From: an uncultured SAR86 cluster bacterium
GTDB taxonomy: Bacteria > Pseudomonadota > Gammaproteobacteria > Magnimaribacterales > D2472
Assembly: GCA_902613705.1 (NCBI GenBank)
Contig: CACMIG010000002.1
Span: 47,207-111,206 of the forward strand
Length of the DNA stretch: 64,000 nucleotides
Direction: 5' to 3'
A model generated the notes under the pieces. That model was not told the origin of the DNA and did not search any database. It worked only from the letters and a program-made list of their open reading frames with translations. Shown here piece by piece: positions 31,464-61,901 of the stretch (its first letter is position 1; each line of letters starts with the position of its first letter). A program made the translations under genes and the position numbers.

Positions 31464-33308
31464 TTATAAATCAAGAACTTCCTTCCAAGATGTCATATCT
31501 TGATCTAAATTAAAAAATTGAATATTTTGTTGATTTTCATTATTAAGTAAAGCTTCGTTTAAGGTTAGCTTTAAATTTTCTTCATCAGAAACAAATTTTA
31601 CATTTTTAACTCCTCTCAAAGGACTCATATCTAAATTTTCAAGATCTCTGACAGATATTATTGTTTTTCCAAGAGAATATGCTTCAACTGCAGCTGAGGA
31701 AACATTGCCAGTAAAAACTATATCTGCTTTTAAAATTAAGTTACCTATAAAAGAGTCCTCAATTTTTGCATTTATATTAACAATGTCCTCTGATTTTATA
31801 GGACAGGCTGGGTGGGGCTTTATTATTACATTAGTGCACTCAAGAATTCTAGATACTTTATTTGATTTCAAGAATGAAAGCATGAACATCGTATTGGATT
31901 TCAAATAATCACCTAAAACAAGCAATGTTTTTGTTTCGTTTTTTTCTGATTTCTCCTTCTTTGAGATTAAATTATTTAAGTATAAGTATCTCAATGACTC
32001 AACCTCTTGAATCTTATTATCTGGATAGCCAAATTTAATCATCATTGACTTATCATTAAGACCGTTTACCGCAAAATTGTCTGGAATAGGTTTTGAATAA
32101 ATCCCAGTATTTTGGTAATTTTTTATATCATTAAAATATCGCAGGTCCCAATATCTTATAGTTGAGTGAGCAAAACCGGTTAGCTTTCTTCTTTCCGACT
32201 TAAAAGATGAAATTAGACCTTGTTCCCATGAGTGATTTTCAGATAAATAAATTATCTTAGAATCTTCATCAGAAACGCTCTCTACTTCTTCAAAGAGTGC
32301 TAAATAAAACAAAGAGCTGACCATATCAGAGCTTAATAAAGACCTTGAAAAATCGTTTTTTAATAGTGGCCATAAAAAATCACTACCTTTCAATAACTCC
32401 TTCTTAGCTTTAGAAAATTTTGTAAGAATAATAAATATATCTTTTAAAGTTTTATAAATAACTTTTAAATTAAAAAATGATGAAATAATAATATGAGCGT
32501 GAGAACTATCTTTTTGACTTTTAAGTCTAAAAAAAATATTAAGAGTCTCATAAAATCTAAATCTCTTTGAGGGCAGGTATAACCAGTTAGTACAAACTTG
32601 TTTTTTTGCTAAATAGCTTGGTAACGGCCCCCAGAAAACATTATTAAATCTTTTATCTTTGGCATCATCCAAATTAACTGTAGAGAGGTATGAGACAAAA
32701 ATTAATTTTGAGTTTTTTAAATTCCAGCTTTTTTTTCCTAATAGCTTGAAAGGTATAGAAAAAAGAATTTCTCTTATCAGCCACAATGCACCCTTAAGTA
32801 AGTAAAATGCATTAAAAATATAGTCCTTTAAATTAAGATAATTTATTTTACTTGTATTTTTTGAAATTATTTTTATATTAATTTCTAGATTTTCGCACAA
32901 CAACTTAATCGAACTAAGAAGGTCTTTATTGTCGGATTTTACAACAACTTGTTTGCATTCATCATTTAAAAAAAATGATTTTAAAGCCATTAGTTTTAAA
33001 ATATTTGATATATTTGGGGACTTTGCCCAGTTATTTTTTTCAGCAATTGCAGTCATCCACCAAAAACTAAAATTATCTCTAATTTGTAATAAATCAATTA
33101 GAGATTCTCCGTAGTATCTTGAATTACCAAGATTATAAATAAAATGAAGGTATTCGGATTTTAATTGATCAGAATTAGATTCTAATATTTCAACAATTGA
33201 ATAAGATTCATTTGAAACTTCGTGAGATGTGCTCCAAAAAATAACTGAAAATTTTGAGTCTATTTTGGGCTTATCCTTACTATCCCAAATATAAATCAAT
33301 TTTTGCAA
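31464..33308 (-). CDS. Surface-carbohydrate biosynthesis protein, putative CMP-sugar transferase (TIGR04326/LIC13510-like)
   Basis: SFWWMT.IAEK.N, HSTIRYWDLRYF, VESLRY.YL, IKPHP, SSAAVEAY; TTG start with GGAG SD. Family assignment is from memory. Confidence 0.7.
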   Translation of the reverse strand: MQKLIYIWDSKDKPKIDSKFSVIFWSTSHEVSNESYSIVEILESNSDQLKSEYLHFIYNLGNSRYYGESLIDLLQIRDNFSFWWMTAIAEKNNWAKSPNISNILKLMALKSFFLNDECKQVVVKSDNKDLLSSIKLLCENLEINIKIISKNTSKINYLNLKDYIFNAFYLLKGALWLIREILFSIPFKLLGKKSWNLKNSKLIFVSYLSTVNLDDAKDKRFNNVFWGPLPSYLAKKQVCTNWLYLPSKRFRFYETLNIFFRLKSQKDSSHAHIIISSFFNLKVIYKTLKDIFIILTKFSKAKKELLKGSDFLWPLLKNDFSRSLLSSDMVSSLFYLALFEEVESVSDEDSKIIYLSENHSWEQGLISSFKSERRKLTGFAHSTIRYWDLRYFNDIKNYQNTGIYSKPIPDNFAVNGLNDKSMMIKFGYPDNKIQEVESLRYLYLNNLISKKEKSEKNETKTLLVLGDYLKSNTMFMLSFLKSNKVSRILECTNVIIKPHPACPIKSEDIVNINAKIEDSFIGNLILKADIVFTGNVSSAAVEAYSLGKTIISVRDLENLDMSPLRGVKNVKFVSDEENLKLTLNEALLNNENQQNIQFFNLDQDMTSWKEVLDL

Positions 33309-37612: not shown

Positions 37613-38593
37613 CTAAGCCTCCCTATGCATAGTATATTCTGAATCAGGAACAATATTCTTTAATTCACATCCAGAAAAATATCTTACCACTTCCTCAGTA
37701 GCCTCAATCTCCATTCGATTTCTACAATCTATAGACATAGACCCCATATGAGAAGTTAATAAACATGACTCTATTTCACTAAGGGTTCCATTATATGGTT
37801 CCTCATTAAAACAATCTATTGCTGCGCCACCAATTATCTTTGAATATAGCGCATTTTCTAAATCAGACTCGTTAATAATACCGCCTCTAGCAGTATTAAT
37901 TATTAGTGAATCATCTTTCATCATTTTTAATTCTTTTTCAGTAATCATATTCCTAGTCAAATCTGTTAATGGCACATGCAAAGATATAACATCTGACTCT
38001 TTATAGATTGTTTCTTTATCGACCCACTCTATTTGTAAATTTGGTGCTATATTTTCTTTTGGAGATATATCATTTACCAAAACACGTTTAGCTCCAAGAG
38101 CTGATAATCTTCTGAGAACCATACCTCCAATCCTTCCTGCACCAATAATTCCTATTGTTACCTCAGGAATTCTTCTGCCAAAAATACGCTCCCATTTCTT
38201 ATCATGCATCATTAAATTAGATATATGAACGCCCCTTAACAAAGTTAACATATTTCCAATTGCTAGTTCAGCAACCGCTGGCGCAGGAGCATCTGGTGTA
38301 TATGTAACAATTATATTCTTACTTTTTGCAGCGTTAAGATTAACACTATCAAGACCGACTCCTACTCGTGAAATAATCTTCAAATTAGTAGCGCTATTAA
38401 TAACTTCTTTATTAATCTCCTCAGTTCCAGCAATCACTGCATCATATTCTGGAATCATTTCTTGTAATTCATCTGAGGTGAGCTTTCTATCATATGGATT
38501 CATAGAATAGTTAAGATTTGCTTTGTCTAACATATCTAAAGCCAGCCTATTAGTTTTTGCAAAAGGTACAGTTGTTATTAGAACTTTCTTCAT
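37613..38593 (-). CDS. Phosphoglycerate-dehydrogenase-like D-2-hydroxyacid dehydrogenase (no ACT domain)
   Basis: SRVGVGLD, AVAEL, GAGRIG, INTARG, EEPY, TSHMG. Confidence 0.88.
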   Translation of the reverse strand: MKKVLITTVPFAKTNRLALDMLDKANLNYSMNPYDRKLTSDELQEMIPEYDAVIAGTEEINKEVINSATNLKIISRVGVGLDSVNLNAAKSKNIIVTYTPDAPAPAVAELAIGNMLTLLRGVHISNLMMHDKKWERIFGRRIPEVTIGIIGAGRIGGMVLRRLSALGAKRVLVNDISPKENIAPNLQIEWVDKETIYKESDVISLHVPLTDLTRNMITEKELKMMKDDSLIINTARGGIINESDLENALYSKIIGGAAIDCFNEEPYNGTLSEIESCLLTSHMGSMSIDCRNRMEIEATEEVVRYFSGCELKNIVPDSEYTMHREA

Positions 38594-39921
38594 TAAATAG
38601 CCCTAAGTGAATTATTTGAATTTAAATAATTTTCTGATGATAGCATACGTCTCTGCTCAAGAATATAATCTGGAAGAAGTATAATTGTTAAGATAATTAA
38701 TACTCCGAACATATTAAATATATCACTAAAGAAATAGATATTAAAAACTACATAGGTGTTCAGTAATAGTGCTAAGCCAAAACGATTTGAAAACTCAATT
38801 TCATTATTTTTTAATAGATTAAATAAAGGTTTGGTTACAAAGTATATAAAAACCCAATAAATGCTAAAACCAACCAAACCGTATACTTCTGTTACATTGC
38901 CAACAAGTCCAATATCTCTACACAAAGCTTTTTCACATTCTTGTGTGGACTGACCAAATATTGAAATGGCTTGAATTTGTCCATCGCCCATACTACTAAA
39001 TGCGCTCGCAACTCTGTTAAGCAAGAAACCATCAATTCCAGTTAAACTAATAATCAAATAAAAAGCTATAGGTAATATAAATATGGGTAATAAAAATATG
39101 CTTGTGGTATAAATTTTAGGTCCTATAAAACGAGTAATAACTAGGCCCGCTGAAATTATCAAAACAATTATTGCAGAGGCAGATGCTGAAGCTAGAAATG
39201 CTAGAGCGTGCATCAATAAAAAAAATCGTTTTGCTAAAGAATTTGTTTTTGACAATATTAACGAAGCAAATGTAATTAAGATTATTGAAGAAAAATACTT
39301 TGGTTCAGTTGAGAAAAAAATTGAGCGGTTAAACTTAAGTTCACCTATGTAAACATCGTATCCCCAAATACATCTTTCCATTAGTCCAAGGCCATATGGA
39401 TTTACAAAATCACAACCAAGCCATCTTGCCCACTCATCACCTTGAATTGCAACTTCAAATTTAGACAAGTCGCCACCATCAATTGTAAGGAGCAAAAATT
39501 GTTGAAGAACAACAATTAAAGAGATTAATCCACCCGCATACCCTATTATCTTAAAAATGAAATAAGAGTTGTATCTGACCATCAATGCCAAATTAATTAA
39601 TAAAATATATATTGAATATTTTAATGACGTAAAACCGTCTCCGAATATGAATTCATGTGCAGCAAAATATATTGCTAATATGATAGATACAACTATTAAT
39701 CTTCTGTGAGAATGACGAACGATTAAACGGCCTCTCAAAGCAAGAATATAAAATAAGAAAAATAAAGCTAATAAGATAAAGGGTATTGTTATTAATCCTG
39801 CATTTTGACTACCCCCTAAAATATAATGAGTAACTAACAAATTTCTATCAGATGAAAAAAGAATGACCACCACTAGCGCAACAAAGAACTTATCAACGTA
39901 GGTAAATTTAATATTATTCAT
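38593..39921 (-). CDS. Polytopic membrane protein, putative Wzy-like polymerase or O-glycan ligase
   Basis: About 10-12 hydrophobic segments, R...FSTEP loop motif, island context. Confidence 0.6.
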   Translation of the reverse strand: MNNIKFTYVDKFFVALVVVILFSSDRNLLVTHYILGGSQNAGLITIPFILLALFFLFYILALRGRLIVRHSHRRLIVVSIILAIYFAAHEFIFGDGFTSLKYSIYILLINLALMVRYNSYFIFKIIGYAGGLISLIVVLQQFLLLTIDGGDLSKFEVAIQGDEWARWLGCDFVNPYGLGLMERCIWGYDVYIGELKFNRSIFFSTEPKYFSSIILITFASLILSKTNSLAKRFFLLMHALAFLASASASAIIVLIISAGLVITRFIGPKIYTTSIFLLPIFILPIAFYLIISLTGIDGFLLNRVASAFSSMGDGQIQAISIFGQSTQECEKALCRDIGLVGNVTEVYGLVGFSIYWVFIYFVTKPLFNLLKNNEIEFSNRFGLALLLNTYVVFNIYFFSDIFNMFGVLIILTIILLPDYILEQRRMLSSENYLNSNNSLRAI

Positions 39922-39942: not shown

Positions 39943-42615
39943 TTACGACTTAATAATTGATGATATCCAATCCTTAGTATTTTCAATTTTGTGTTTATTC
40001 CAATTAATTTGCAATTCAGAGCTACCTATATCTAAGTGATTATTTTTTATCCAATTCAGACTCCATAATAAATTTTTATATTGTGAAACATAATAAATTG
40101 GAGAAATCTTTGATTTAGATTCAATACCCAGAATTTCTGCAGGAATATGCGAATATCTATCAAATGGATCATATTGTAGGACTGGAATTTTTACCTGAAG
40201 AGCTTCCTCTATGGTGGTTGAGGAAAAACTAACTAATAAATCTGAAGCCAATAAATAATCTTCGAAAGTTCCTTCAAAGTATAATTCATAGCAATCAGAT
40301 TCAACGAATAATCTCCTGATATCATCCTGAGACATATCTTTCCAACCAAAACTTTTTAATCGAACCCTTATTGCAAGAAATACATCACTCATCTTTTCAA
40401 TAGATTTAATTAAATCGTTGATATGAGATATATATTCATCATGAGTTAGGCTTACAAAAGGTTGAAATGAATTCCATCCAAAAGGAGTTGCTGCATGAAG
40501 AATAATTTTTTTATGAAAGTTATTTGGGAATAAAGATTCTTTTAATTTCACCTTATCTTTATTTCCTCCATTTGCATATAGTAATGGTCCAGTTAATACT
40601 GGAGTCGAAGGATTATCTATACAGTTATTCAAAAACTTTTCCGTCCATGGTGTTTGGATTGAGACAAGTGGAAAATGAGTTTTAATCATAAAGCGTGCAT
40701 GCTCATTCCATTCTTTCTGTACCAATTTTTCTTTATGTGGAACATGTGTACCATGTGAAATAATCATTGCGTTTATATTTTCATTTTTACATTGTTCACC
40801 AATTGCATAATGATAACCAACTGCTTGATTTGTAAATACAAATGAAGGTCTTTTTGTTCTAATTATCCTTTGAAAGGCCATTGAGCCAAAAAAGGCTGTT
40901 TTAACTTTATTCTTTAAACCGTTATTTAAGTAATCTACTGTCAAGTTTTTAAGTGAAACACCATGAATTGAATAAATATCTCTATTTTCGTCAACACTTT
41001 TGAAAACTTTTTGTATAGCGATGTTGTAGTTATTAAGAAATTCATCTAATTTATTTTTTCTTAAAGGTGGAGGAAACCTTAGGAATTGTCCATTTTTCCC
41101 AAGTAAAATTGACAAAAATAAACTAAGTCCCTTTAAATTTGTTCCTCCAACACTAAATGGATTTTTAATTTTCTTTTTTAAGTAGTCCATAACTCTTGGT
41201 ATGTTGTATGTTGAGCTTGTTGCAAAAATGACGTTCTTATTATTACTGTAGAATTTATATAAAAATATTTGTACATTAAACATAAATTTATGAAATAAAT
41301 TAGAAATCTTTTGAGTTAACTTATTTTGTTTTCTTACATATGTTTTATCTACATCTCCCTCATATTCATATTCAAATTTTTTTACTTTTGCATAAAGTTC
41401 TCCCAAAAGGCCTATTAATGATGAATTAGGCTTTAAATGATCAATGATATCACTAGGGTTAATAGATCTTGGGAGAATAATTTTTTTAGGTTTAAAATAC
41501 TCTATGGAATTATGGAGTATAAAAATCAAAGAAGAGCAATAAAGGTAGTAATATCTTAAAAAACTCGAAAACTCTCTTTCATATGCATGCTCAACGCCAA
41601 CAAAATCCGTCAATTGAAAATTATCTCTAACATTAGAAATTATTTCATTTATTTTGGTCATAATAGCTATGTGGTCCTCATTTTTGAAGAAATTATTAGT
41701 GTTTAAGAATGGAATGCCTATTCTAATAAGCTCACTTTGAGCAGATGGCCCTATTGCAATAATTTGGTAGTTTTTCTGAAAATCACTTTTAATATAATAT
41801 TTCTTAAAAATTTCTACTTGAGCAGCCGTTTCAATATAAATAAGATTCTTTCCTTTTAAATAATTTGCATTCTCTCGATTGATTAAGTCATACTCCTTTT
41901 TGTAAGTTTTATTCTCTAATAATCTATTCAGTAAATTTAATTCTTTATTTGTGAGATGTCTTTTTTTACGAAAGCCCGATTTTAATCTTGGAAGATCAAG
42001 TTTTGAGCCTATAATATCTTCTAGATCTTTTACTAATTTATCCAGCTCTGAATATGAATAAACTTTATCAATAATAATTTCGTCGTTAACTGTGTATCTA
42101 TTCCAGTTTCTTGCGTATGCATGCTTTCGATCCTCTTCAAGCCATCTTGATAATGAAATTGTTTTTGCTAGAGATGGGTGTGGAAAAGGAAAATTAATAA
42201 AATTTGGTAAAAGGCTTTGAAATCTATTGATTAAGTTACGATATCTTGGCCATTTTATGCCATTCTTATTATGATAATAAACCGATAAGCTTTTCTCCCT
42301 TGGGTCTCTTTCTATTGAAAATTTATAATATGAATTCCAAATTGAAGACGGTATTTGCCCTTTAATTTCATATGCTTGTGCGTGCTCATAAAAAATACCA
42401 ATATTCCCTCTTGATACCATTTCATCATAATTACTACTATTTCGATAATTTCTTGCGCCTGATATTTTATCAACAACATTAATGTCTTTATCTTCAGCAA
42501 CAGGGGTAATAACATCATCGTTTCCAAGATGAGGTCTAAGAGCCATCTCTAAAGACGATCCAGCAACCTTTCCTGATTTAATAAATATAAATTTATGCTT
42601 GTGAGAAATTATCAT
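39943..42615 (-). CDS. Fusion of a sulfotransferase (family 2-like) and a GT-B-type transferase domain
   Basis: N-terminal FIFIKSGKVAGSS (5'-PSB loop) and KFSIERDPREKSLSVY (3'-PB); C-terminal SHG and DLLVSFSSTTIEEAL. Confidence 0.75.
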   Translation of the reverse strand: MIISHKHKFIFIKSGKVAGSSLEMALRPHLGNDDVITPVAEDKDINVVDKISGARNYRNSSNYDEMVSRGNIGIFYEHAQAYEIKGQIPSSIWNSYYKFSIERDPREKSLSVYYHNKNGIKWPRYRNLINRFQSLLPNFINFPFPHPSLAKTISLSRWLEEDRKHAYARNWNRYTVNDEIIIDKVYSYSELDKLVKDLEDIIGSKLDLPRLKSGFRKKRHLTNKELNLLNRLLENKTYKKEYDLINRENANYLKGKNLIYIETAAQVEIFKKYYIKSDFQKNYQIIAIGPSAQSELIRIGIPFLNTNNFFKNEDHIAIMTKINEIISNVRDNFQLTDFVGVEHAYEREFSSFLRYYYLYCSSLIFILHNSIEYFKPKKIILPRSINPSDIIDHLKPNSSLIGLLGELYAKVKKFEYEYEGDVDKTYVRKQNKLTQKISNLFHKFMFNVQIFLYKFYSNNKNVIFATSSTYNIPRVMDYLKKKIKNPFSVGGTNLKGLSLFLSILLGKNGQFLRFPPPLRKNKLDEFLNNYNIAIQKVFKSVDENRDIYSIHGVSLKNLTVDYLNNGLKNKVKTAFFGSMAFQRIIRTKRPSFVFTNQAVGYHYAIGEQCKNENINAMIISHGTHVPHKEKLVQKEWNEHARFMIKTHFPLVSIQTPWTEKFLNNCIDNPSTPVLTGPLLYANGGNKDKVKLKESLFPNNFHKKIILHAATPFGWNSFQPFVSLTHDEYISHINDLIKSIEKMSDVFLAIRVRLKSFGWKDMSQDDIRRLFVESDCYELYFEGTFEDYLLASDLLVSFSSTTIEEALQVKIPVLQYDPFDRYSHIPAEILGIESKSKISPIYYVSQYKNLLWSLNWIKNNHLDIGSSELQINWNKHKIENTKDWISSIIKS

Positions 42616-44413: not shown

Positions 44414-46183
44414 TTACTCCATGATTAAATTATTGGCAATTTTGCCAATAACTTGAGGATTATACTTGGAATATTGATTATTAAAATCATTTATGACACT
44501 TTGCACTTTTTCGCTAAACCACCATTCATCTACATTATCCCATATCGCTGTTAAATGCTTTGCAGCATCTTCTGGAGAAAAATGTAATACTCCAACACTT
44601 TTTAAGCCCATAAAAAAATCATTAGCTTGATTATTAATCTCCCAATGTTCAGGATTCCAAAATAATATACTTGGCATATTAGCACTAAAGGTTTCTAAAT
44701 ATGTTGTAGCATTGTATGTTCCAATAAAAATGCGGGATTTTTTTAATGAATCTCTTAAAGAGTTTTTATTGTCATCAAAATTGATATCATGGAACTTGGA
44801 TTTCCATCTGTTTTTTTGGTCCCACTCACGATCTTTTGGGTAAACCCTTACTTTTAAGTTATTTCTTATGTGATTTGGAAGTGCTTCAGCAAATTTAAAC
44901 TGATCATTAAAATAATTTTCTACTTGTCCTGCAATTGGTACGCTATACAAATAGTAACTATATTTTGGTAACGTCATTAAGGCCATCAGCGCATCTCCAT
45001 TAGATTTATTTCTAATTTTTGTATGCTTTGATTTAAAATTTCCTACAGGCATTACCTTACTTTCATATTTATCATTCCAACCCCAAGAAAGCCATTTATT
45101 AGATATTTTGATTTGATGAGATTCATGAATTGCCATTGGAGTCATACCAAAATTCCCTCCATGTTGACCTATTACTAGTTTAGATCCAGATTCAATTTGT
45201 TGAGCAGACCAACACTTAAATACTTCATCCGAGGCATATGCGTTACTTGTAAATATGGATACTGGTGATTTTGGCCAACCCTGCGATTTTGAAGATTCCA
45301 CAAGAGTCTTAAATCCTTCAAGATAAATTTTTGGAATTAATTTAAAAATAATTTGGCCTAGTACATCTTCAAATCCATCAATTAATCCAGGCTTACAAAT
45401 AAAAAGAGTATTTTCTCGAAGTGGAGAGGTTTCATTGTAGTCAAAATCAGTATCATCTCTATACCATATAGCCGGGAATTGTTTTAATTTAATTTGTAAA
45501 AATATCAATTTAAAAATCGACATATGAGGAGCAATAATAAAAACACTCTTATCACCTAAAAAGATACTTGAAATAGTATTACTAAACTTTTTAATTAGTT
45601 TCTTTATAGAAAATTTTTTTGTTTTTACATTTTTAATGCTTTCTTCTAATAAATCGTATTCACCTGTTGAAGAAATTATAAATTTTGTACTAAAAAATTT
45701 ATCAGCTATTAAACTATAAAGTGCTTCATTCCAGATATCAGTTTCAATAGCTTGATTAAATCCGTCCATATCATTTACAAGTAATGACTGTGTATAATTT
45801 TGTAAAATATTTAATTTTAAAGATTCATCTTTCTTTGAGACTTCATTAAGCATATACCATCTATCAAATATTACTTGAATACATGTGAACAACCATGGGC
45901 CTATCAATATTCTCCAGAATCTTTCAGAAAAATCAGTGCCGTGAATATTGTTTAATTTTGAAACGAATTCTGTTAAATATTGCTCATATATTTGCTCAAG
46001 ATTTTTGTAATCATGGTATAACTTTTTACGATCGTCCCAATGATATTGAGAAATTTTAAAGTCTAAAGAAAACCAATAAGATTTTCGAGAAAACGAACAG
46101 CACCATGATCCCAAAAATAAAATTGGACCTTCTTTTGGCCACGTGGATTCTAATGCCGTAGTTACTAAAGTTTTATTGATCAC
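44414..46183 (-). CDS. LIC12162/TIGR04331-like putative transferase
   Basis: TTALESTWP, FLGSWC, YHWDDRKK, QHGG, YNATTYLE; GTG start overlaps the upstream TGA. Family assignment is from memory. Confidence 0.75.
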   Translation of the reverse strand: MINKTLVTTALESTWPKEGPILFLGSWCCSFSRKSYWFSLDFKISQYHWDDRKKLYHDYKNLEQIYEQYLTEFVSKLNNIHGTDFSERFWRILIGPWLFTCIQVIFDRWYMLNEVSKKDESLKLNILQNYTQSLLVNDMDGFNQAIETDIWNEALYSLIADKFFSTKFIISSTGEYDLLEESIKNVKTKKFSIKKLIKKFSNTISSIFLGDKSVFIIAPHMSIFKLIFLQIKLKQFPAIWYRDDTDFDYNETSPLRENTLFICKPGLIDGFEDVLGQIIFKLIPKIYLEGFKTLVESSKSQGWPKSPVSIFTSNAYASDEVFKCWSAQQIESGSKLVIGQHGGNFGMTPMAIHESHQIKISNKWLSWGWNDKYESKVMPVGNFKSKHTKIRNKSNGDALMALMTLPKYSYYLYSVPIAGQVENYFNDQFKFAEALPNHIRNNLKVRVYPKDREWDQKNRWKSKFHDINFDDNKNSLRDSLKKSRIFIGTYNATTYLETFSANMPSILFWNPEHWEINNQANDFFMGLKSVGVLHFSPEDAAKHLTAIWDNVDEWWFSEKVQSVINDFNNQYSKYNPQVIGKIANNLIME

Positions 46184-47013
46184 CAAATTGATCTTCCGCC
46201 ATCTACAACAATATTTTGCCCATTCATATACGAAGATGCATCTGAGCACAAATATTGCACGGTACCTCTATACTCATCAGAATTTGCCATCCTATTTAAA
46301 GGAATAAGTTCAGTTATTCTTTTAATAAATTGATCATCTTGATCATTAAAAACACCACCTGGTGACAATGAATTGCATCTAACGCCACTATTTGCCCAAT
46401 AAGTAGATAAATATCTAGTTAGTCCTATCAAACCAGTCTTTATTACAGAATATGTAACGGGCTTTACTTTCTGCATATTTTCAGCGACTCCATCCTGTTT
46501 ATAAAGCCTTTGATCAGGAGATATTACTGATAGATCTGATGCAATATTTAGTATAACTCCACCTTTATGATCTTCAGCCATTTTTGATCCAAATATCTGA
46601 CTGCATAAAAAAGCTCCTGCTAATCCTACATTTAATTCCAAATTCCATTGTTCAATATCAAAGTTTTCAAAACGTGTACTTTCATCCAATTCTTTTCCTT
46701 TTCTAACTTTTGGATCTATGGCTGCATTATTGATTAAAATATCAATACGAATATTTTCATTAGATAAATCCTCATAAACTTTCTGTATATCACTCTTTTT
46801 TGACACATCCATCTTTTTTAAAACAATATCTTCTTCTTTATAAAATTTAATTAACTTTTCTTTTGCTATTTCGAGACCTTTTTCAGAAATATCTGTTAAT
46901 ACAACTTTAGCTCCTAATTCAAGTAAGGCATGAGCATGTTCAATACCCAACAAACCGGATGCTCCTGTAATTAGAGCTGATTTTGTATTAAGATCAAATT
47001 TGGAAAGTGTCAT
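46180..47013 (-). CDS. Short-chain dehydrogenase/reductase (PtmA-like)
   Basis: TGASGLLG, INNAA, YSVIK, NSLSPGG, VVDGG. Confidence 0.88.
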   Translation of the reverse strand: MTLSKFDLNTKSALITGASGLLGIEHAHALLELGAKVVLTDISEKGLEIAKEKLIKFYKEEDIVLKKMDVSKKSDIQKVYEDLSNENIRIDILINNAAIDPKVRKGKELDESTRFENFDIEQWNLELNVGLAGAFLCSQIFGSKMAEDHKGGVILNIASDLSVISPDQRLYKQDGVAENMQKVKPVTYSVIKTGLIGLTRYLSTYWANSGVRCNSLSPGGVFNDQDDQFIKRITELIPLNRMANSDEYRGTVQYLCSDASSYMNGQNIVVDGGRSIW

Positions 47014-52445: not shown

Positions 52446-54332
52446 TTAAATTATATTTTCTAAATTCTCAAGCGCAATCCAAAAACCTTCTCCACCATTT
52501 TTATGACCTTGCCATATTTCAGGAATAAAGGATGCATTCGGGCAGTGCTTATTTAATATTGCTGCTAGCTTATTAAAATCAATTTCTCCCTCACCTACTT
52601 GAAGACCTTCTCCATTAACTCCTAATGCATCACCAATATGAAGATGACCTGTAATTGGTGCAATTTTTTCAGCAAATTCATAAAAATTTTGATTGAAATG
52701 ATTGCTTGTCAAAAATGAATGAGAAACATCAAAGCACATCCTTAAATCAAGCTTTTTGCACCATTCTAAACACTCATCCGCATCAACAAACATATTTTGG
52801 TACCTTTGACCTCCAAAATGCCATGGAAATGGAGCCATTGTTTGAGGAATTAACTCCACTCCGTCTAAATCCAGTTCATCAAGACTTTTTTGAAAGCGCC
52901 CATAATAATTCTTTAACTCTTCAATTGGAAGAGTTGCGTCCATTGTGAATCCACCAACATTTGCAACAATCATTGGCTTTTTTGTAGATGGAAAAAATTT
53001 TTTTATAGACCTTGTAATGTCAACAACTCTCTGAGTTTCCTTAATAGAGATTTTTCTATACTCATCATCCGGAGATGCTAAATCCATTAAATGACTTCCT
53101 GAAAAGAGTTCAGGAGCATGAACAACAAAGTCACTTTGATATTCATTATTAAAAAAATCGTCTATGTTTAAATCTAAGTCTGAATATGAGAGATGAAATT
53201 CAAATAAATCTGGACTTATCATATTGTTATATTGATTAAAATCATGATATCTAACCGGAACTCCCCATGGTCTTTTGAAATTATATTGTCGAGGCTTAAT
53301 TTTATTCTGGTTAATATCTGATAGAAAAAAATAATCGTCAACAGACATGTCTCTTTGAAGTGTTTTACCTAAAAGTTGTTCATAATTTTGTGGAGATAGG
53401 CCTTGACCAGGACTAAGGACATTGATGTGCTCAGGTGAAATAGTTGTCCCCTTTTTGATATCCATTGCGGCTACCAAACTTTTTGCAAGATTTTCTCTAT
53501 TAATCATTTCACCTTGTGATACAACTCTTTTTTTGCCATCTCCTAAAGCCTGTTCTATTTCTCTAATTCCTTTTGTCATTGATAAAAACTCTTCAGGCTC
53601 AAGGCTAGCAGCATGATCTGGTCCCTCTGCATTTCTATCAAAAGTAAAATGCCTCTCAACGACCTTTGCACCAAGCCCGACTGCTGCTAAAGAAACTGAT
53701 GTGCCTCTTTCATGCCCTGAATATCCAACATATGGATGTATTTCTTTTAGTTTATTCATCCAATTAAGATTTATGTCATAAACCGGAGCTGGGTAAGTAC
53801 TATTACAATGCAAAAGAATAAAATCAGAATTGTTTTCATTTAAAAAATCTACTGTTATTTGCACTTCATCTTTTGTGCTCATACCTGTAGATAAGATTAA
53901 TGGCTTACCAGTTTCAACCAACTTAGTTATCAGAGGTATATTTGTTAAGTCAGCCGATGCAACCTTATATGCTGGTACATCCAGACTTTCTAAGATTTTA
54001 ATACTTTTAATATCCCATGGCGTACACATATACAAAATATTCATATCTTTACAATATTTTGCAATTCTCCTGTGTTCATCTTCGGAAAGTTCAAAGCGAT
54101 CTAATAAATCTAAAATGTACTCAGTTCCTAGATCTTCTCCAGTTTTTGAGAGGCTCTTTTTTCTGTATACAGATTCCATGTTGCGCATTTGAAACTTAAC
54201 ACAATCTGCACCAGCATCTATTGCAGCATCAATCATTTTAATCGCTTGGTTAAAACTTCCGTTATGGTTATTTCCTATTTCGGCTATAACAAAAACCTTA
54301 TTTTTGCCAATATTAAAATCTGCAATCTTCAT
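52446..54332 (-). CDS. NeuB-type PEP-dependent ulosonate synthase with SAF domain and C-terminal AP-endonuclease-2/isomerase TIM barrel
   Basis: IAEIGNNHNG, VKFQ, KVASAD, LSTGM, HCNSTYP, GYSGHE, ERHFT; C-terminal domain with HAPE, FDVSH, HIGD, PEIWQGH. Confidence 0.9.
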   Translation of the reverse strand: MKIADFNIGKNKVFVIAEIGNNHNGSFNQAIKMIDAAIDAGADCVKFQMRNMESVYRKKSLSKTGEDLGTEYILDLLDRFELSEDEHRRIAKYCKDMNILYMCTPWDIKSIKILESLDVPAYKVASADLTNIPLITKLVETGKPLILSTGMSTKDEVQITVDFLNENNSDFILLHCNSTYPAPVYDINLNWMNKLKEIHPYVGYSGHERGTSVSLAAVGLGAKVVERHFTFDRNAEGPDHAASLEPEEFLSMTKGIREIEQALGDGKKRVVSQGEMINRENLAKSLVAAMDIKKGTTISPEHINVLSPGQGLSPQNYEQLLGKTLQRDMSVDDYFFLSDINQNKIKPRQYNFKRPWGVPVRYHDFNQYNNMISPDLFEFHLSYSDLDLNIDDFFNNEYQSDFVVHAPELFSGSHLMDLASPDDEYRKISIKETQRVVDITRSIKKFFPSTKKPMIVANVGGFTMDATLPIEELKNYYGRFQKSLDELDLDGVELIPQTMAPFPWHFGGQRYQNMFVDADECLEWCKKLDLRMCFDVSHSFLTSNHFNQNFYEFAEKIAPITGHLHIGDALGVNGEGLQVGEGEIDFNKLAAILNKHCPNASFIPEIWQGHKNGGEGFWIALENLENII

Positions 54333-59995: not shown

Positions 59996-60394
59996 TTATT
60001 TTTTATCAAGTTTACCCTCGTCGCGAAGCCTTTTTCTTATCTTTGTTGCGCTTATTGAGGAAATTGAATCCTCAAACGACTCTTCTTCAAATACATATCC
60101 TACACCCCTTCCATAAGTTATGTTCACTATATTGGGTACGAGCATAATTTCGTACTCAATACCTCTCTTGTAACCATCTGACAATAAGCCTGATTCTATA
60201 TTTTTGCATACTTGATCCCAATCAAAGGGATTATCATCCTGTCCTGCGCCGCCAGAAGCACCTTTTACATCTCTTACTTGGATAATAACTTGTCCGGTTT
60301 TAGCAATACATCTTTTGAAAAGTTCTTGATGACCATGATGCCATGGTTGCCATCTGCCAAGCATCTGAACAGTAGGCTTCTTCCAATCAAACAT
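59996..60394 (-). CDS. Small HIGH-motif nucleotidyltransferase (132 aa)
   Basis: GRWQPWHHGH, TYGRGVG, SISATKIR; ATG at 60394 overlaps the upstream kinase. Confidence 0.8.
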   Translation of the reverse strand: MFDWKKPTVQMLGRWQPWHHGHQELFKRCIAKTGQVIIQVRDVKGASGGAGQDDNPFDWDQVCKNIESGLLSDGYKRGIEYEIMLVPNIVNITYGRGVGYVFEEESFEDSISSISATKIRKRLRDEGKLDKK

Positions 60395-60800
60395 GTTTTT
60401 CCTTAATATCAAATGCAATATTAATATGGTTTTTATCATTCCACTCTTTTATATGGAAAGTGACATTTTTTGGGTTTTCAAATAATTTGTTCGTGTCCTT
60501 AAATCTTCCCTCTTTAATTGTATCCATCCATATGACAATGTCTGCAGCAAAATTTGATCTGGTATCTTTTGTAGGACAAACAAAGTCACAAATAACATAT
60601 CTTCCATGGCTTTTTTCAAAATCTGCAAATGTCCTCATTCTTTCAGATTGACGTAATCGTCCATTTTCAGAAAAATCCCAATCGTTAGCCATTTCCCTTA
60701 CTTTATCTGCATTATACCAAGCAGCTTTGAGCAAAGGCGCCAATCTTTCAGTAAGATATGTCTTTCCAGATCCAGGCAATCCCATTACTAAAATTTTCAT
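60387..60800 (-). CDS. Minimal adenylyl-sulfate-kinase-like (CysC-like) P-loop kinase
   Basis: GLPGSGKT, NADKVR, DFSENGR..Q..R, DFVCP...R, FENP. Confidence 0.75.
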   Translation of the reverse strand: MKILVMGLPGSGKTYLTERLAPLLKAAWYNADKVREMANDWDFSENGRLRQSERMRTFADFEKSHGRYVICDFVCPTKDTRSNFAADIVIWMDTIKEGRFKDTNKLFENPKNVTFHIKEWNDKNHINIAFDIKEKHV

Positions 60801-60886: not shown

Positions 60887-60973
60887 TGGTACCCGAGGCC
60901 GGACTTGAACCGGCACGATATTTCTATCGAGGGATTTTAAGTCCCTTGTGTCTACCAATTCCACCACTCGGGC
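60887..60973 (-). tRNA. tRNA-Leu(TAA)
   Basis: GCCCGAG...AGGGA-CTTAAAA-TCCCT anticodon arm, long variable arm, GTTCAAGTC, CCA end. Confidence 0.96.
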
Positions 60974-61001
60974 ACAATGATTTACATGCCATATATATTA
61001 A

Positions 61002-61075
61002 TGGAGGCTGAATCCGGAATCGAACCGGAGTGAACGGCTTTGCAGGCCGCTGCATAACCACTCTGCCATCCAGCC
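61002..61075 (-). tRNA. tRNA-Cys(GCA)
   Basis: GGCTGGA...GCGGC-CTGCAAA-GCCGT anticodon arm, GTTCGATTC, CCA end. Confidence 0.96.
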
Positions 61076-61145: not shown

Positions 61146-61901
61146 TTATTCTCTTTCAATATCATCCTCGACGCACTCCTCTCCATACTGGATTTCTATG
61201 AGATGACATTTTTCATCATAAGGATTTGATATTTTGTGCCACTCACCCATGGGCACTAAATAATGATCAAATTTATTTAATTGAATACTTTTTTTGTTCT
61301 CTGGATTTTCTTTGCTATAGCTAACTATGCATGAGCCTTTACTTACCATCCAAATTTCATGTCTTTTAAAATGTTTTTGAAAGCTCATACTTTTGCCTGG
61401 ATCAACTATAAGCTCTTTAACTTTTACATCACCGTCTTCAAAAAGATTATAGAAAGATCCCCATTTTCTTTCTTCAAAATAATACTGCCACTTTTTGAGC
61501 ATCCATGAGGAAGAATTTTTTTTATCGTCGCCTCCAACACTAAATAGAAATTCGATCTCGTCAACCTCCATCTCAGGTATATTTCCTTCTTTCCTATCTC
61601 CTCCGTTTGCAAAGGCAATTTCATCATTTGGATACATTTTTTTTACTTTAACCAATGCTTGAGATGCGCTTCCATGATCATCATCTTCAAAATCAATTAC
61701 AGAATCAACAAACGAAAGATTCTCAATAATAGATTTCCTTTCTTCAAATGGCATAAAAAACTTACCTTTCTTTTTTATTAACCAATCATCGCTATTTAAA
61801 GCAACAATAAGAATGTCTCCAAGATATCTAGCTTCTTTAAAATAAGATATATGTCCTGAATGTAAAGGATCAAACCCTCCACTTACAACTATAACTTTCA
61901 T
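61146..61901 (-). CDS. RfaE-II/TagD-like nucleotidyltransferase fused to a mannose-6-phosphate-isomerase-type cupin
   Basis: SGGFDPLHSGH, VALNSD, FANGGDR, KNSSS; then WG, SFQKHFKRHEIW, IEIQYG..C.EDDIER. Confidence 0.85.
   Translation of the reverse strand: MKVIVVSGGFDPLHSGHISYFKEARYLGDILIVALNSDDWLIKKKGKFFMPFEERKSIIENLSFVDSVIDFEDDDHGSASQALVKVKKMYPNDEIAFANGGDRKEGNIPEMEVDEIEFLFSVGGDDKKNSSSWMLKKWQYYFEERKWGSFYNLFEDGDVKVKELIVDPGKSMSFQKHFKRHEIWMVSKGSCIVSYSKENPENKKSIQLNKFDHYLVPMGEWHKISNPYDEKCHLIEIQYGEECVEDDIERE

Follow-up and report, generated by a model that had tools for sequence, protein, structure and literature searches.

Identification of a gene pair encoding a small kinase and a HIGH-superfamily adenylyltransferase

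The 64,000 nucleotide stretch of DNA analysed in this study (hereafter the window; contig CACMIG010000002.1 of assembly GCA_902613705.1, positions 47,207 to 111,206) belongs to an uncultured SAR86 cluster bacterium with a genome of 1.006 Mb (82% complete, approximately 32% G+C). Two small genes on its minus strand are the subject of the present analysis. The first one at 60387..60800 (open reading frame (ORF) 60390-60800, stop codon 60387-60389) is predicted to encode a P-loop kinase of 137 amino acids (aa) resembling a miniature adenosine 5'-phosphosulfate (APS) kinase. The second one at 59996..60394 (ATG at 60394, stop codon 59996-59998) putatively encodes a 132-aa adenylyltransferase of the HIGH superfamily (the HIGH protein), a candidate sulfate adenylyltransferase that appears to be derived from the nicotinamide mononucleotide (NMN) adenylyltransferases (NMNAT).

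The stop codon of the kinase gene and the start codon of the HIGH gene share an overlap of 8 nt on the minus strand, read directly from the sequence (ATGTTTGA, 60387..60394), which suggests a translational coupling of both genes. A longer reading of the HIGH gene starting at 60439 (147 aa) is likewise open, but the start of the 132-aa form is preferred since it results in the 8-nt overlap and fits the length of the homologues (129-130 aa). The overlap is also kept in relatives, e.g. in the locus L014 (kinase 1098-1508, HIGH gene 1501-1893). Given that more than 8000 homologues were scored, that the HIGH gene is 76-84% identical in 28 related genomes and that fused kinase-HIGH proteins exist, the two genes do not represent chance ORFs. 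An earlier sequence-only reading of the window, made by a model without database searches, had described the two overlapping genes and the motifs GRWQPWHHGH, ITYGRGVG and ISATKIR in the HIGH protein, all of which were confirmed. In an alignment of 19 diverse homologues, the residues G13, R14, Q16, P17, H19, G21, H22, P56, G95, R96, Y100, I114, S115, T117, I119 and R120 are invariant.

Predicted relationship of the kinase

The kinase carries the Walker A motif GLPGSGKT and exceeds the cut-off of the Pfam family APS_kinase (PF01583; 25.5 bits, cut-off 21.1), with residues 3-83 aligned to the positions 5-91 of the 152 profile positions; in the genome-wide search against PF01583 it scored 24.2 bits. 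The best NCBIfam model, NF004041, was hit at 28.4 bits and thus below its cut-off of 127. A search of the PDB using a profile of the kinase half retrieved APS kinases first, starting with 2yvu (E 3.9e-11) and continuing with 2gks, 3cr7, 1d6j and PAPSS1.

The AlphaFold2 model of the kinase (predicted local distance difference test, pLDDT, 90) showed the best structural match to CysC of Mycobacterium tuberculosis (4rfv; Z 14.2, root mean square deviation 1.9, 111 residues aligned), and APS kinases in general matched at Z 13.0-14.2 with 20-28% identity. Gluconate kinase (Z 13.4) lies within 1 Z unit of the APS kinases. Judged by its sequence and predicted fold, the kinase is a relative of the APS kinases without the C-terminal lid. 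The CysC-like nature assigned by the sequence-only reading is therefore borne out by the Pfam cut-off, the PDB profile matches and the fold.

Ancestry and fold of the HIGH protein

The HIGH protein possesses the HxGH and ISxTxxR motifs, and its top 33 structural matches are all nucleotidyltransferases of the HIGH superfamily. Its matches in Pfam remained below the thresholds (CTP_transf_like, 15.8 bits), and the best NCBIfam models are NMN adenylyltransferases, although TIGR01527 was hit with only 23.8 bits against a cut-off of 181.2. Searching the PDB with a profile built from the 19-sequence alignment retrieved eleven NMNAT or NadM sequences with E values from 4.9e-13 (1f9a) to 7.4e-8, including 2qjt at 5e-12. 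The alignment to the NMNATs places GRFQPFHKGH against GRwQPwHdGH and furthermore comprises the motif NPF. No ATP sulfurylase was present among the 27 PDB sequences matched by this profile at E<=10.

The AlphaFold2 model of the HIGH protein (pLDDT 88) was compared to known structures using VIA-align. The best matches were NadM (2qjt, Z 10.5), phosphopantetheine adenylyltransferase (PPAT, Z 9.8) and the NMNAT of Methanocaldococcus jannaschii (Z 9.7). The ATP sulfurylase of Thermus thermophilus (1v47) reached Z 8.2 with 118 aligned residues, which is almost the entire model; the remaining chains of ATP sulfurylases of the Sat type scored Z 5.3-6.1, and every Sat chain, including 1v47, ranks below the NMNATs (Z 8.5-10.5). 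A Foldseek search of the model against the PDB resulted in weak matches with 4yp7 as the best one (E 6.9e-3).

According to these sequence and model comparisons, the origin of the HIGH enzyme lies in the NMN adenylyltransferases and not in Sat. The sequence-only reading had deduced a Sat ancestry from the three motifs, which did not hold, given that they are generic to the HIGH superfamily and that the PDB profile matches NMNATs and not ATP sulfurylase. In the structural comparison with Sat, NMNAT and PPAT which it had proposed, NadM, PPAT and NMNAT obtained the best ranks and Sat a lower one.

The kinase and the HIGH enzyme as one functional unit

Further loci were compared among genomes (the best 80, mostly Pelagibacteraceae), viral contigs (the 80 best, L121-L200, with counts made over 75) and metagenome contigs carrying a fused form (71). 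Upstream of the HIGH gene, an ORF of the kinase cluster was encountered at a distance of one or two ORFs in 70 of the 80 genome loci, and of at most three ORFs in 67 of the 75 viral loci. The HIGH half was furthermore matched in 6373 longer proteins; those of 255-290 aa among the matches listed are kinase-HIGH fusions, most of them with PF01583. The profile phrog_10255 likewise represents a fusion of both halves, and is carried by phages of Xylella, Stenotrophomonas and Xanthomonas and by one Clavibacter phage record, in early or DNA-metabolism regions.

The view that the kinase and the HIGH protein form one functional unit is supported by these gene arrangements, and the coupling of the two enzymes assumed in the sequence-only reading is consistent with both the 8-nt overlap and the fusion in many organisms. 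The metazoan PAPSS proteins, which synthesise 3'-phosphoadenosine 5'-phosphosulfate (PAPS), have the same domain order as the fused relatives, with the kinase followed by the adenylyltransferase.

Sulfotransferases and sulfate activation in the order

The order was sampled with 41 genomes comprising the own genome, 24 congeners (f1), six genomes of the sister family (f2) and five genomes each of two further families (f3 and f4). The HIGH gene was detected in 23 of the 24 congeners and in five of the six sister-family genomes, and in none of the ten genomes of f3 and f4. Sulfotransferases were found in 32 of the 41 genomes, namely in the own genome, in all congeners (24/24) and sister-family genomes (6/6), in none of f3 (0/5) and in one of f4 (1/5, G033). 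Of these 32 genomes, 29 carry the HIGH gene, G033 encodes the only CysD of the sample (1/41), and two incomplete genomes, G020 (77% complete) and G040 (140 contigs), lack both. In the nine genomes without sulfotransferases, the HIGH gene, Sat and CysD are all absent. Sat was identified in a single genome (G025).

The absence of sat and cysDN noted for the window by the sequence-only reading extends to the searched rest of the 82%-complete genome. Since sulfotransferases are thus encoded in genomes without Sat or CysDN, the HIGH protein is the foremost candidate for the sulfate adenylyltransferase that these genomes are missing. AprA was not detected in the five pair-bearing SAR86 genomes tested, in a search whose controls matched nowhere, nor was it detected in the own genome.

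In the sister-family genomes G031, G034, G037 and G028 a sulfotransferase gene precedes the kinase and HIGH genes, which are followed by a gene for a 2-hydroxyacid dehydrogenase, and in G025 a sulfotransferase gene is located within 3 kb of the pair. The own genome encodes three clear sulfotransferases (148-158 bits), all of them on contigs other than that of the pair; one of 372 aa is the best match of the sulfotransferase neighbouring the pair in the sister family (42% identity). A CysQ-like gene is present in the own genome as well. The distribution of CysQ in the order was considered as a discriminator and rejected, since CysQ-like genes also occur in f3, which has neither sulfotransferases nor the pair.

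Two proteins of 527 and 667 aa combining tetratricopeptide (TPR) repeats with Sulfotransfer_3 are encoded in the own genome at C7:522-2105 and C7:8250-10253 (L203) and are conserved across the genus. Their genes flank genes encoding a BCCT transporter and a TonB-dependent receptor.

The pair in SAR11-type genomes, metagenomes and phages

Some of the 80 genome loci contain genes of the sulfur metabolism in the neighbourhood of the pair. A true cysQ (288 bits, cut-off 228.8) is positioned directly upstream and on the same strand in six loci, aprA is nearby in six and aprB in eight; cysQ, aprA and aprB together account for 14 of the 80 loci. Methanethiol-oxidase-like genes were detected in 15 loci and a gene of a sulfur-transport family in four. 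Among the 71 metagenome loci with fused forms, a sulfotransferase is located at most four ORFs away in nine, with sulfotransferase-like ORFs making up 9 of 395 near ORFs versus 2 of 344 farther ones. The pair is also present in cultured Pelagibacter strains (loci L105, L113 and L115).

At least 564 viral contigs carry the pair, and the 75 viral loci show T4-like surroundings. In 19 of these 75 marine T4-like loci a small membrane protein of the family DUF2061 (73-111 aa), in its 73-aa form, is encoded upstream of the pair, and in one metagenome contig the DUF2061 gene overlaps the 3' end of a fused kinase-HIGH gene (L215:8680-9015).

For the Pelagibacterales, 121 genomes of at least 85% completeness, including an unpublished one (G119), were searched using PF13469 for sulfotransferases. 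The HIGH gene was found in 99, a PF13469 sulfotransferase in 69 and Sat in five of these genomes. Five genomes with both a sulfotransferase and the HIGH gene were tested for CysD and Sat, and all five lack both. Of five tested genomes having a sulfotransferase without the HIGH gene, three encode CysD and CysNC and the other two none of these enzymes; a sixth one (G074) encodes Sat.

A tree was calculated from 70 HIGH domains, for which the SAR11-type and the viral loci were each subsampled to every fourth and the metagenome loci to every third. The HIGH gene of the window falls into a SAR86-like clade (support 99/97). The sister group of this clade is mixed, containing viral sequences together with alphaproteobacterial ones linked to cysQ or aprBA. 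The main Pelagibacteraceae clade groups with the fused metagenome forms. The alphaproteobacterial HIGH genes adjacent to cysQ or aprBA (L048, L052, L056 and L060) are located inside the viral clade, apart from the main Pelagibacteraceae, and their placement suggests that the module may have been exchanged between phages and hosts.

Proposed function as a miniature PAPS synthase

We propose that the pair represents a miniature PAPS synthase which is split into two proteins, has a sulfurylase derived from the NMNATs and is distributed among very abundant ocean bacteria and their phages, and assign a probability of roughly 0.6 to this interpretation of the sequence data. In the presumed first step the 132-aa HIGH enzyme would transfer AMP from ATP to sulfate, releasing APS and pyrophosphate. 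In the second step, proposed from its family relationship, the lid-less APS-kinase relative would phosphorylate the 3'-OH of APS to form PAPS. The equilibrium of the sulfurylase reaction is unfavourable and requires the coupling of sulfurylase and kinase, as in the PAPS synthases, and the gene overlap here and the gene fusion elsewhere would hold both activities together. PAPS would then be consumed by the three conserved sulfotransferases of this genome, and the resulting 3'-phosphoadenosine 5'-phosphate would be cleared by the CysQ-like phosphatase. Whether the HIGH protein constitutes a third, independently evolved class of ATP sulfurylases, derived from NMNATs and functioning solely together with a lid-less APS kinase, appears evenly balanced on the present sequence comparisons.

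If this proposal is true, SAR11, SAR86 and a large share of the marine T4-like phages would gain a sulfate-activating (or APS-consuming) capacity that has been missed by annotation, and the orphan 'cysC', cysQ and aprBA of Pelagibacter would be explained. Provided that the pair makes PAPS, the most abundant heterotrophs of the ocean would activate sulfate for sulfation and not for assimilation, the APS formed by AprBA would obtain an enzyme for its fate, the pair of the viral contigs would be an auxiliary function in the sulfur cycle, and enzymology would gain a sulfurylase scaffold of 130 residues.

In PMC5069961, Pelagibacter is described as lacking cysDNCHIJ and sat, while the gene table of that study still lists cysC, cysQ and aprA, and the fate of the APS made by AprBA is left unresolved there. 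Viral cysC is tabulated as not validated in PMC12713726. In a lake virome both 'nadM' and 'cysC' are reported among the viral auxiliary genes (PMC8066274), and these may be the two halves of the present pair under automatic names. We did not find a description of the kinase-HIGH family in the literature; supplementary gene tables might list these genes. Likewise, no paper on both SAR86 and a sulfotransferase was found in the literature searched.

Evidence against the proposal and alternative functions

Several observations weigh against a PAPS synthase. The kinase lacks the positions 92-152 of the APS_kinase profile, which represent the C-terminal 'lid' third, and stays far below the NCBIfam equivalog cut-offs (19.7 versus 138.7 bits for TIGR00455). 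The HIGH protein has NMN adenylyltransferases as its closest relatives, with which it shares the motifs GR[FWY]QP[FW]HxGH and NPF, and reaches only 13.9 bits against the Pfam ATP-sulfurylase family (PF01747, cut-off 24.3) with no single stretch passing. According to PMC3358033, neither sulfate uptake nor assimilatory sulfate reduction is encoded in any SAR86 assembly. The phyletic pattern of the pair in the order can be reduced to just two or three independent events, and is nearly matched by the distribution of PnuC. No sulfotransferase neighbours were observed in the 80 genome loci and the 75 viral loci, and the benefit of PAPS to T4-like marine phages is unexplained.

In the Pelagibacterales, furthermore, the HIGH gene and the PF13469 sulfotransferases are not associated in a cross-tabulation made by hand: sulfotransferases occur in 57 of the 99 genomes with the HIGH gene and in 12 of the 22 without it, so that 42 genomes carry the HIGH gene without such a sulfotransferase. 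The association of the pair with sulfotransferases, which the sequence-only reading had suggested checking, accordingly holds in the SAR86 order (HIGH gene in 29/32 genomes with versus 0/9 without sulfotransferases), but neither in the Pelagibacterales nor in the phage loci. In G061 and G070 a sulfotransferase is encoded and no route to PAPS was found among HIGH gene, Sat, CysD and CysNC, and Sat and the pair occur together in G025, G044, G096, G110, G154 and G158.

A different function would be the salvage of NAD by a minimal analogue of NadR, in which nicotinamide riboside would be taken up through PnuC and phosphorylated by the kinase, and the HIGH enzyme would form NAD as an NMN adenylyltransferase. 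All significant relatives of the HIGH protein in the PDB and NCBIfam are NMNAT, NadM or NadR proteins, the joint listing of nadM and cysC in PMC8066274 can be read in the same sense, and this alternative has to be considered since the genus lacks nadC, nadD and nadE and possesses PnuC. An intact nadD was found neither in the 24 sampled congeners (the copy in G002 contains two stops) nor in the own genome, the two near-complete congeners tested yielded neither nadE nor nadC, and NAPRTase or NAMPT were found in none of the 41 genomes; judged by its gene content, the genus appears to be an obligate salvager of nicotinamide riboside or NMN. PnuC itself was detected in the own genome (G000), in 21 of 24 genomes of f1, 5 of 6 of f2, 0 of 5 of f3 and 2 of 5 of f4, which nearly mirrors the pair. 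However, the kinase is related to APS kinases, and no ribosylnicotinamide kinase of the NadR type occurs among the 60 PDB matches listed or the top 50 structural matches. The family f4 provides a counter-example, as nadD is lacking in all five genomes and nadE and nadC also in the one tested (G027), yet none of the five has the pair; conversely, f2 has nadD, nadE and nadC besides the pair. The role of an NMNAT can moreover be filled by a protein with a CinA-like and a NadD-like part in G018 (f1) and G027. Finally, the conserved neighbours of the pair are sulfotransferases, cysQ and aprBA, whereas nadC occurs in 1 of 71 metagenome loci and the neighbour clusters that were scanned for the genome and viral loci contained no NAD gene. 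In view of this gene context and of f4, NAD salvage seems improbable.

It is likewise conceivable, though unlikely, that the kinase is an APS kinase and that the HIGH enzyme, instead of producing APS from sulfate, either operates in reverse after AprBA, converting APS and pyrophosphate to ATP and sulfate in the disposal of sulfite, or adenylylates another metabolite that is subsequently 3'-phosphorylated, by analogy to PPAT and dephospho-CoA kinase. Such a function would agree with the aprA and aprB genes near the pair in the SAR11-type loci, with the lack of Sat in the three aprBA-linked genomes tested (G041-G043) and in 116 of the 121 Pelagibacterales, with the APS of AprBA awaiting a fate, with the 42 of 99 HIGH-bearing Pelagibacterales genomes without a PF13469 sulfotransferase, and with PPAT as a near-top structural neighbour of the HIGH model. 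Nevertheless, with no AprA found in the five pair-bearing SAR86 genomes tested and in the own one, APS would have no source there besides the HIGH enzyme, and the reverse reaction relies on the same enzyme activity and hence overlaps with the proposed PAPS synthase. For another metabolite, the gene context offers no candidate, and coaD is present in the own genome. That the two adjacent genes are functionally unrelated, the kinase being a generic one for nucleotides or sugar acids, could be argued from gluconate kinase and PFK-2 (Z 12.1), which tie with the APS kinases within about 1 Z unit, and from several generic P-loop families of Pfam that also match the kinase. This is hardly compatible with the kinase ORF upstream of the HIGH gene in most genome and viral loci, the widespread fusion and the conserved overlap, and we give it next to no weight.

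The protein with the CinA- and NadD-like parts (368-370 aa) combines a CinA/PncC-like N-terminal domain with a NadD-like HIGH C-terminal domain (FPGSFNPLHEGH ... ISSTELR) and is encoded at L030:1542-2648 (minus strand) in G018 and at L031:1290-2402 (plus strand) in G027. It is a candidate for the sole NMN adenylyltransferase of NAD-auxotrophic streamlined bacteria. A tblastn search of the own genome, which is 82% complete, did not detect the 368-aa protein. A replacement of the NAD kinase was considered as well and rejected, nadK being present in the two congeners tested.

Genomic location of the pair and its surroundings in the window

Directly upstream of the pair, ARAGORN predicted the genes of tRNA-Leu(taa) and tRNA-Cys(gca) on the minus strand (60887..61075). 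Downstream, the pair is followed by a gene for a Wzz-type chain-length protein and by about 50 kb of polysaccharide genes, to which we refer as the island. In five of the six other congeneric loci examined, the pair is instead located between the orthologues of two genes which lie at C2:14585-15679 and C2:15710-16873 (L201) in the own genome, the former encoding a 367-aa protein with a methyltransferase-like motif and without a Pfam match, the latter a saccharopine-dehydrogenase-like protein. In these five loci it follows the methyltransferase-like gene with a 1-nt overlap. A linkage to tRNA genes was observed among the six loci only in G016, where the pair is placed between tRNA-Cys and tRNA-Leu.

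Since the locus differs in five of the six other congeners, the position at the head of the island is regarded as a local feature, and the tRNA genes, by this comparison of gene order, mark the site to which the pair moved in this genome. By the same comparison the pair represents a module of the lineage's core rather than a part of the neighbouring glycan island. The sequence-only reading had placed the pair at the head of the island, which is true for this genome and not conserved beyond it. Its proposal that the pair serves the sulfation of the island's glycan was given up, as the pair belongs to the core of the genus, occupies another locus in most congeners and is accompanied by clear sulfotransferases on other contigs.

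The island was also said to encode a PAPS-dependent sulfotransferase domain in an ORF of 890 aa (39943-42615). A search for look-alikes using a protein language model indicated a possible Sulfotransfer_2-like domain in the N-terminal approximately 250 residues (41866..42615, minus strand): residues 1-250 were assigned to Sulfotransfer_2 with a score of 0.96, 27 of 30 matches belong to the sulfotransferase set, and the family is present on 25% of the cluster members. BLASTP detected weak collinear motif matches. In contrast, no sulfotransferase family of Pfam or NCBIfam matched even at E<=1, and phmmer searches with 11 sulfotransferase queries gave no match. The N-terminus of this ORF as a possible additional consumer of PAPS is a weak lead. 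The remaining approximately 640 residues match no Pfam or NCBIfam family.

Just upstream of the tRNA genes, a 251-aa fusion of a cytidylyltransferase-like domain and a mannose-6-phosphate-isomerase-type cupin is encoded at 61146-61901 (minus strand). The same architecture recurs in an unrelated metagenome contig (L215:7170-7934), where it adjoins a fused kinase-HIGH gene. Between 46000 and 57500 the island comprises two nonulosonic-acid-like gene sets of the NeuB/HpcH type, CTP_transf_3 genes and a CBS-GHMP kinase gene, including a NeuB-xylose-isomerase-like fusion at 52446-54332. The island ORFs 44414-46249, 38593-39921 and 31464-33308 could not be assigned to any family. A scan for promoters and terminators between 59700 and 61200 was uninformative, with 9 promoter-like sites versus 7.0 +/- 2.5 expected.

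Comparison with known systems

The best relatives of the HIGH protein in both sequence and structure are the archaeal NMNATs (MJ0541, 1f9a; M. thermautotrophicus, 1ej2) and NadM (2qjt, 2qjo), with which the GRxQPxHxGH, NPF and SxTxIR motifs are shared. However, only the NMNAT residues 5-65 and 110-148 can be aligned, about 25 residues of the middle part and the C-terminal helices being absent here, and the partners of the HIGH gene are an APS-kinase relative, sulfotransferases, cysQ and aprBA instead of NAD genes. NadR (1lw7, 6gye) resembles the pair in combining a HIGH adenylyltransferase with a P-loop kinase, in genomes with PnuC. In contrast to NadR, the kinase is APS-kinase-like, and NadR is a weak match to the HIGH protein (E 0.22-0.67, Z 7.9-8.1). 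The domain order of NadR is opposite to that of the fused kinase-HIGH forms.

A similar succession of reactions is known from the synthesis of CoA, in which a HIGH adenylyltransferase (PPAT) is followed by a P-loop kinase (dephospho-CoA kinase) phosphorylating the 3'-OH of the adenosine. The structural resemblance extends to both halves, PPAT matching the HIGH model at the Z value given above and dephospho-CoA kinases matching the kinase model at Z 8.5-9.1, but the genome has a normal coaD and no pantothenate or CoA genes were present among the neighbour clusters of the pair that were scanned.

Metazoan PAPSS1/2 (1x6v) and the Sat-APS kinase fusion of Aquifex (2gks) match the kinase model at Z 13.0-13.2 and the HIGH model at Z 5.7-6.1. 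They differ from the pair in several respects: the transferase comprises 132 aa here, compared to the Sat region of about 200 aa which aligns to it, presumably does without the N-terminal PUA-like domain, scores below the Pfam ATP-sulfurylase cut-off and is akin to the NMNATs, while the kinase is devoid of the last third of the profile. What the pair has in common with these systems is an APS-kinase-type domain that is joined or coupled to an adenylyltransferase of the HIGH superfamily.

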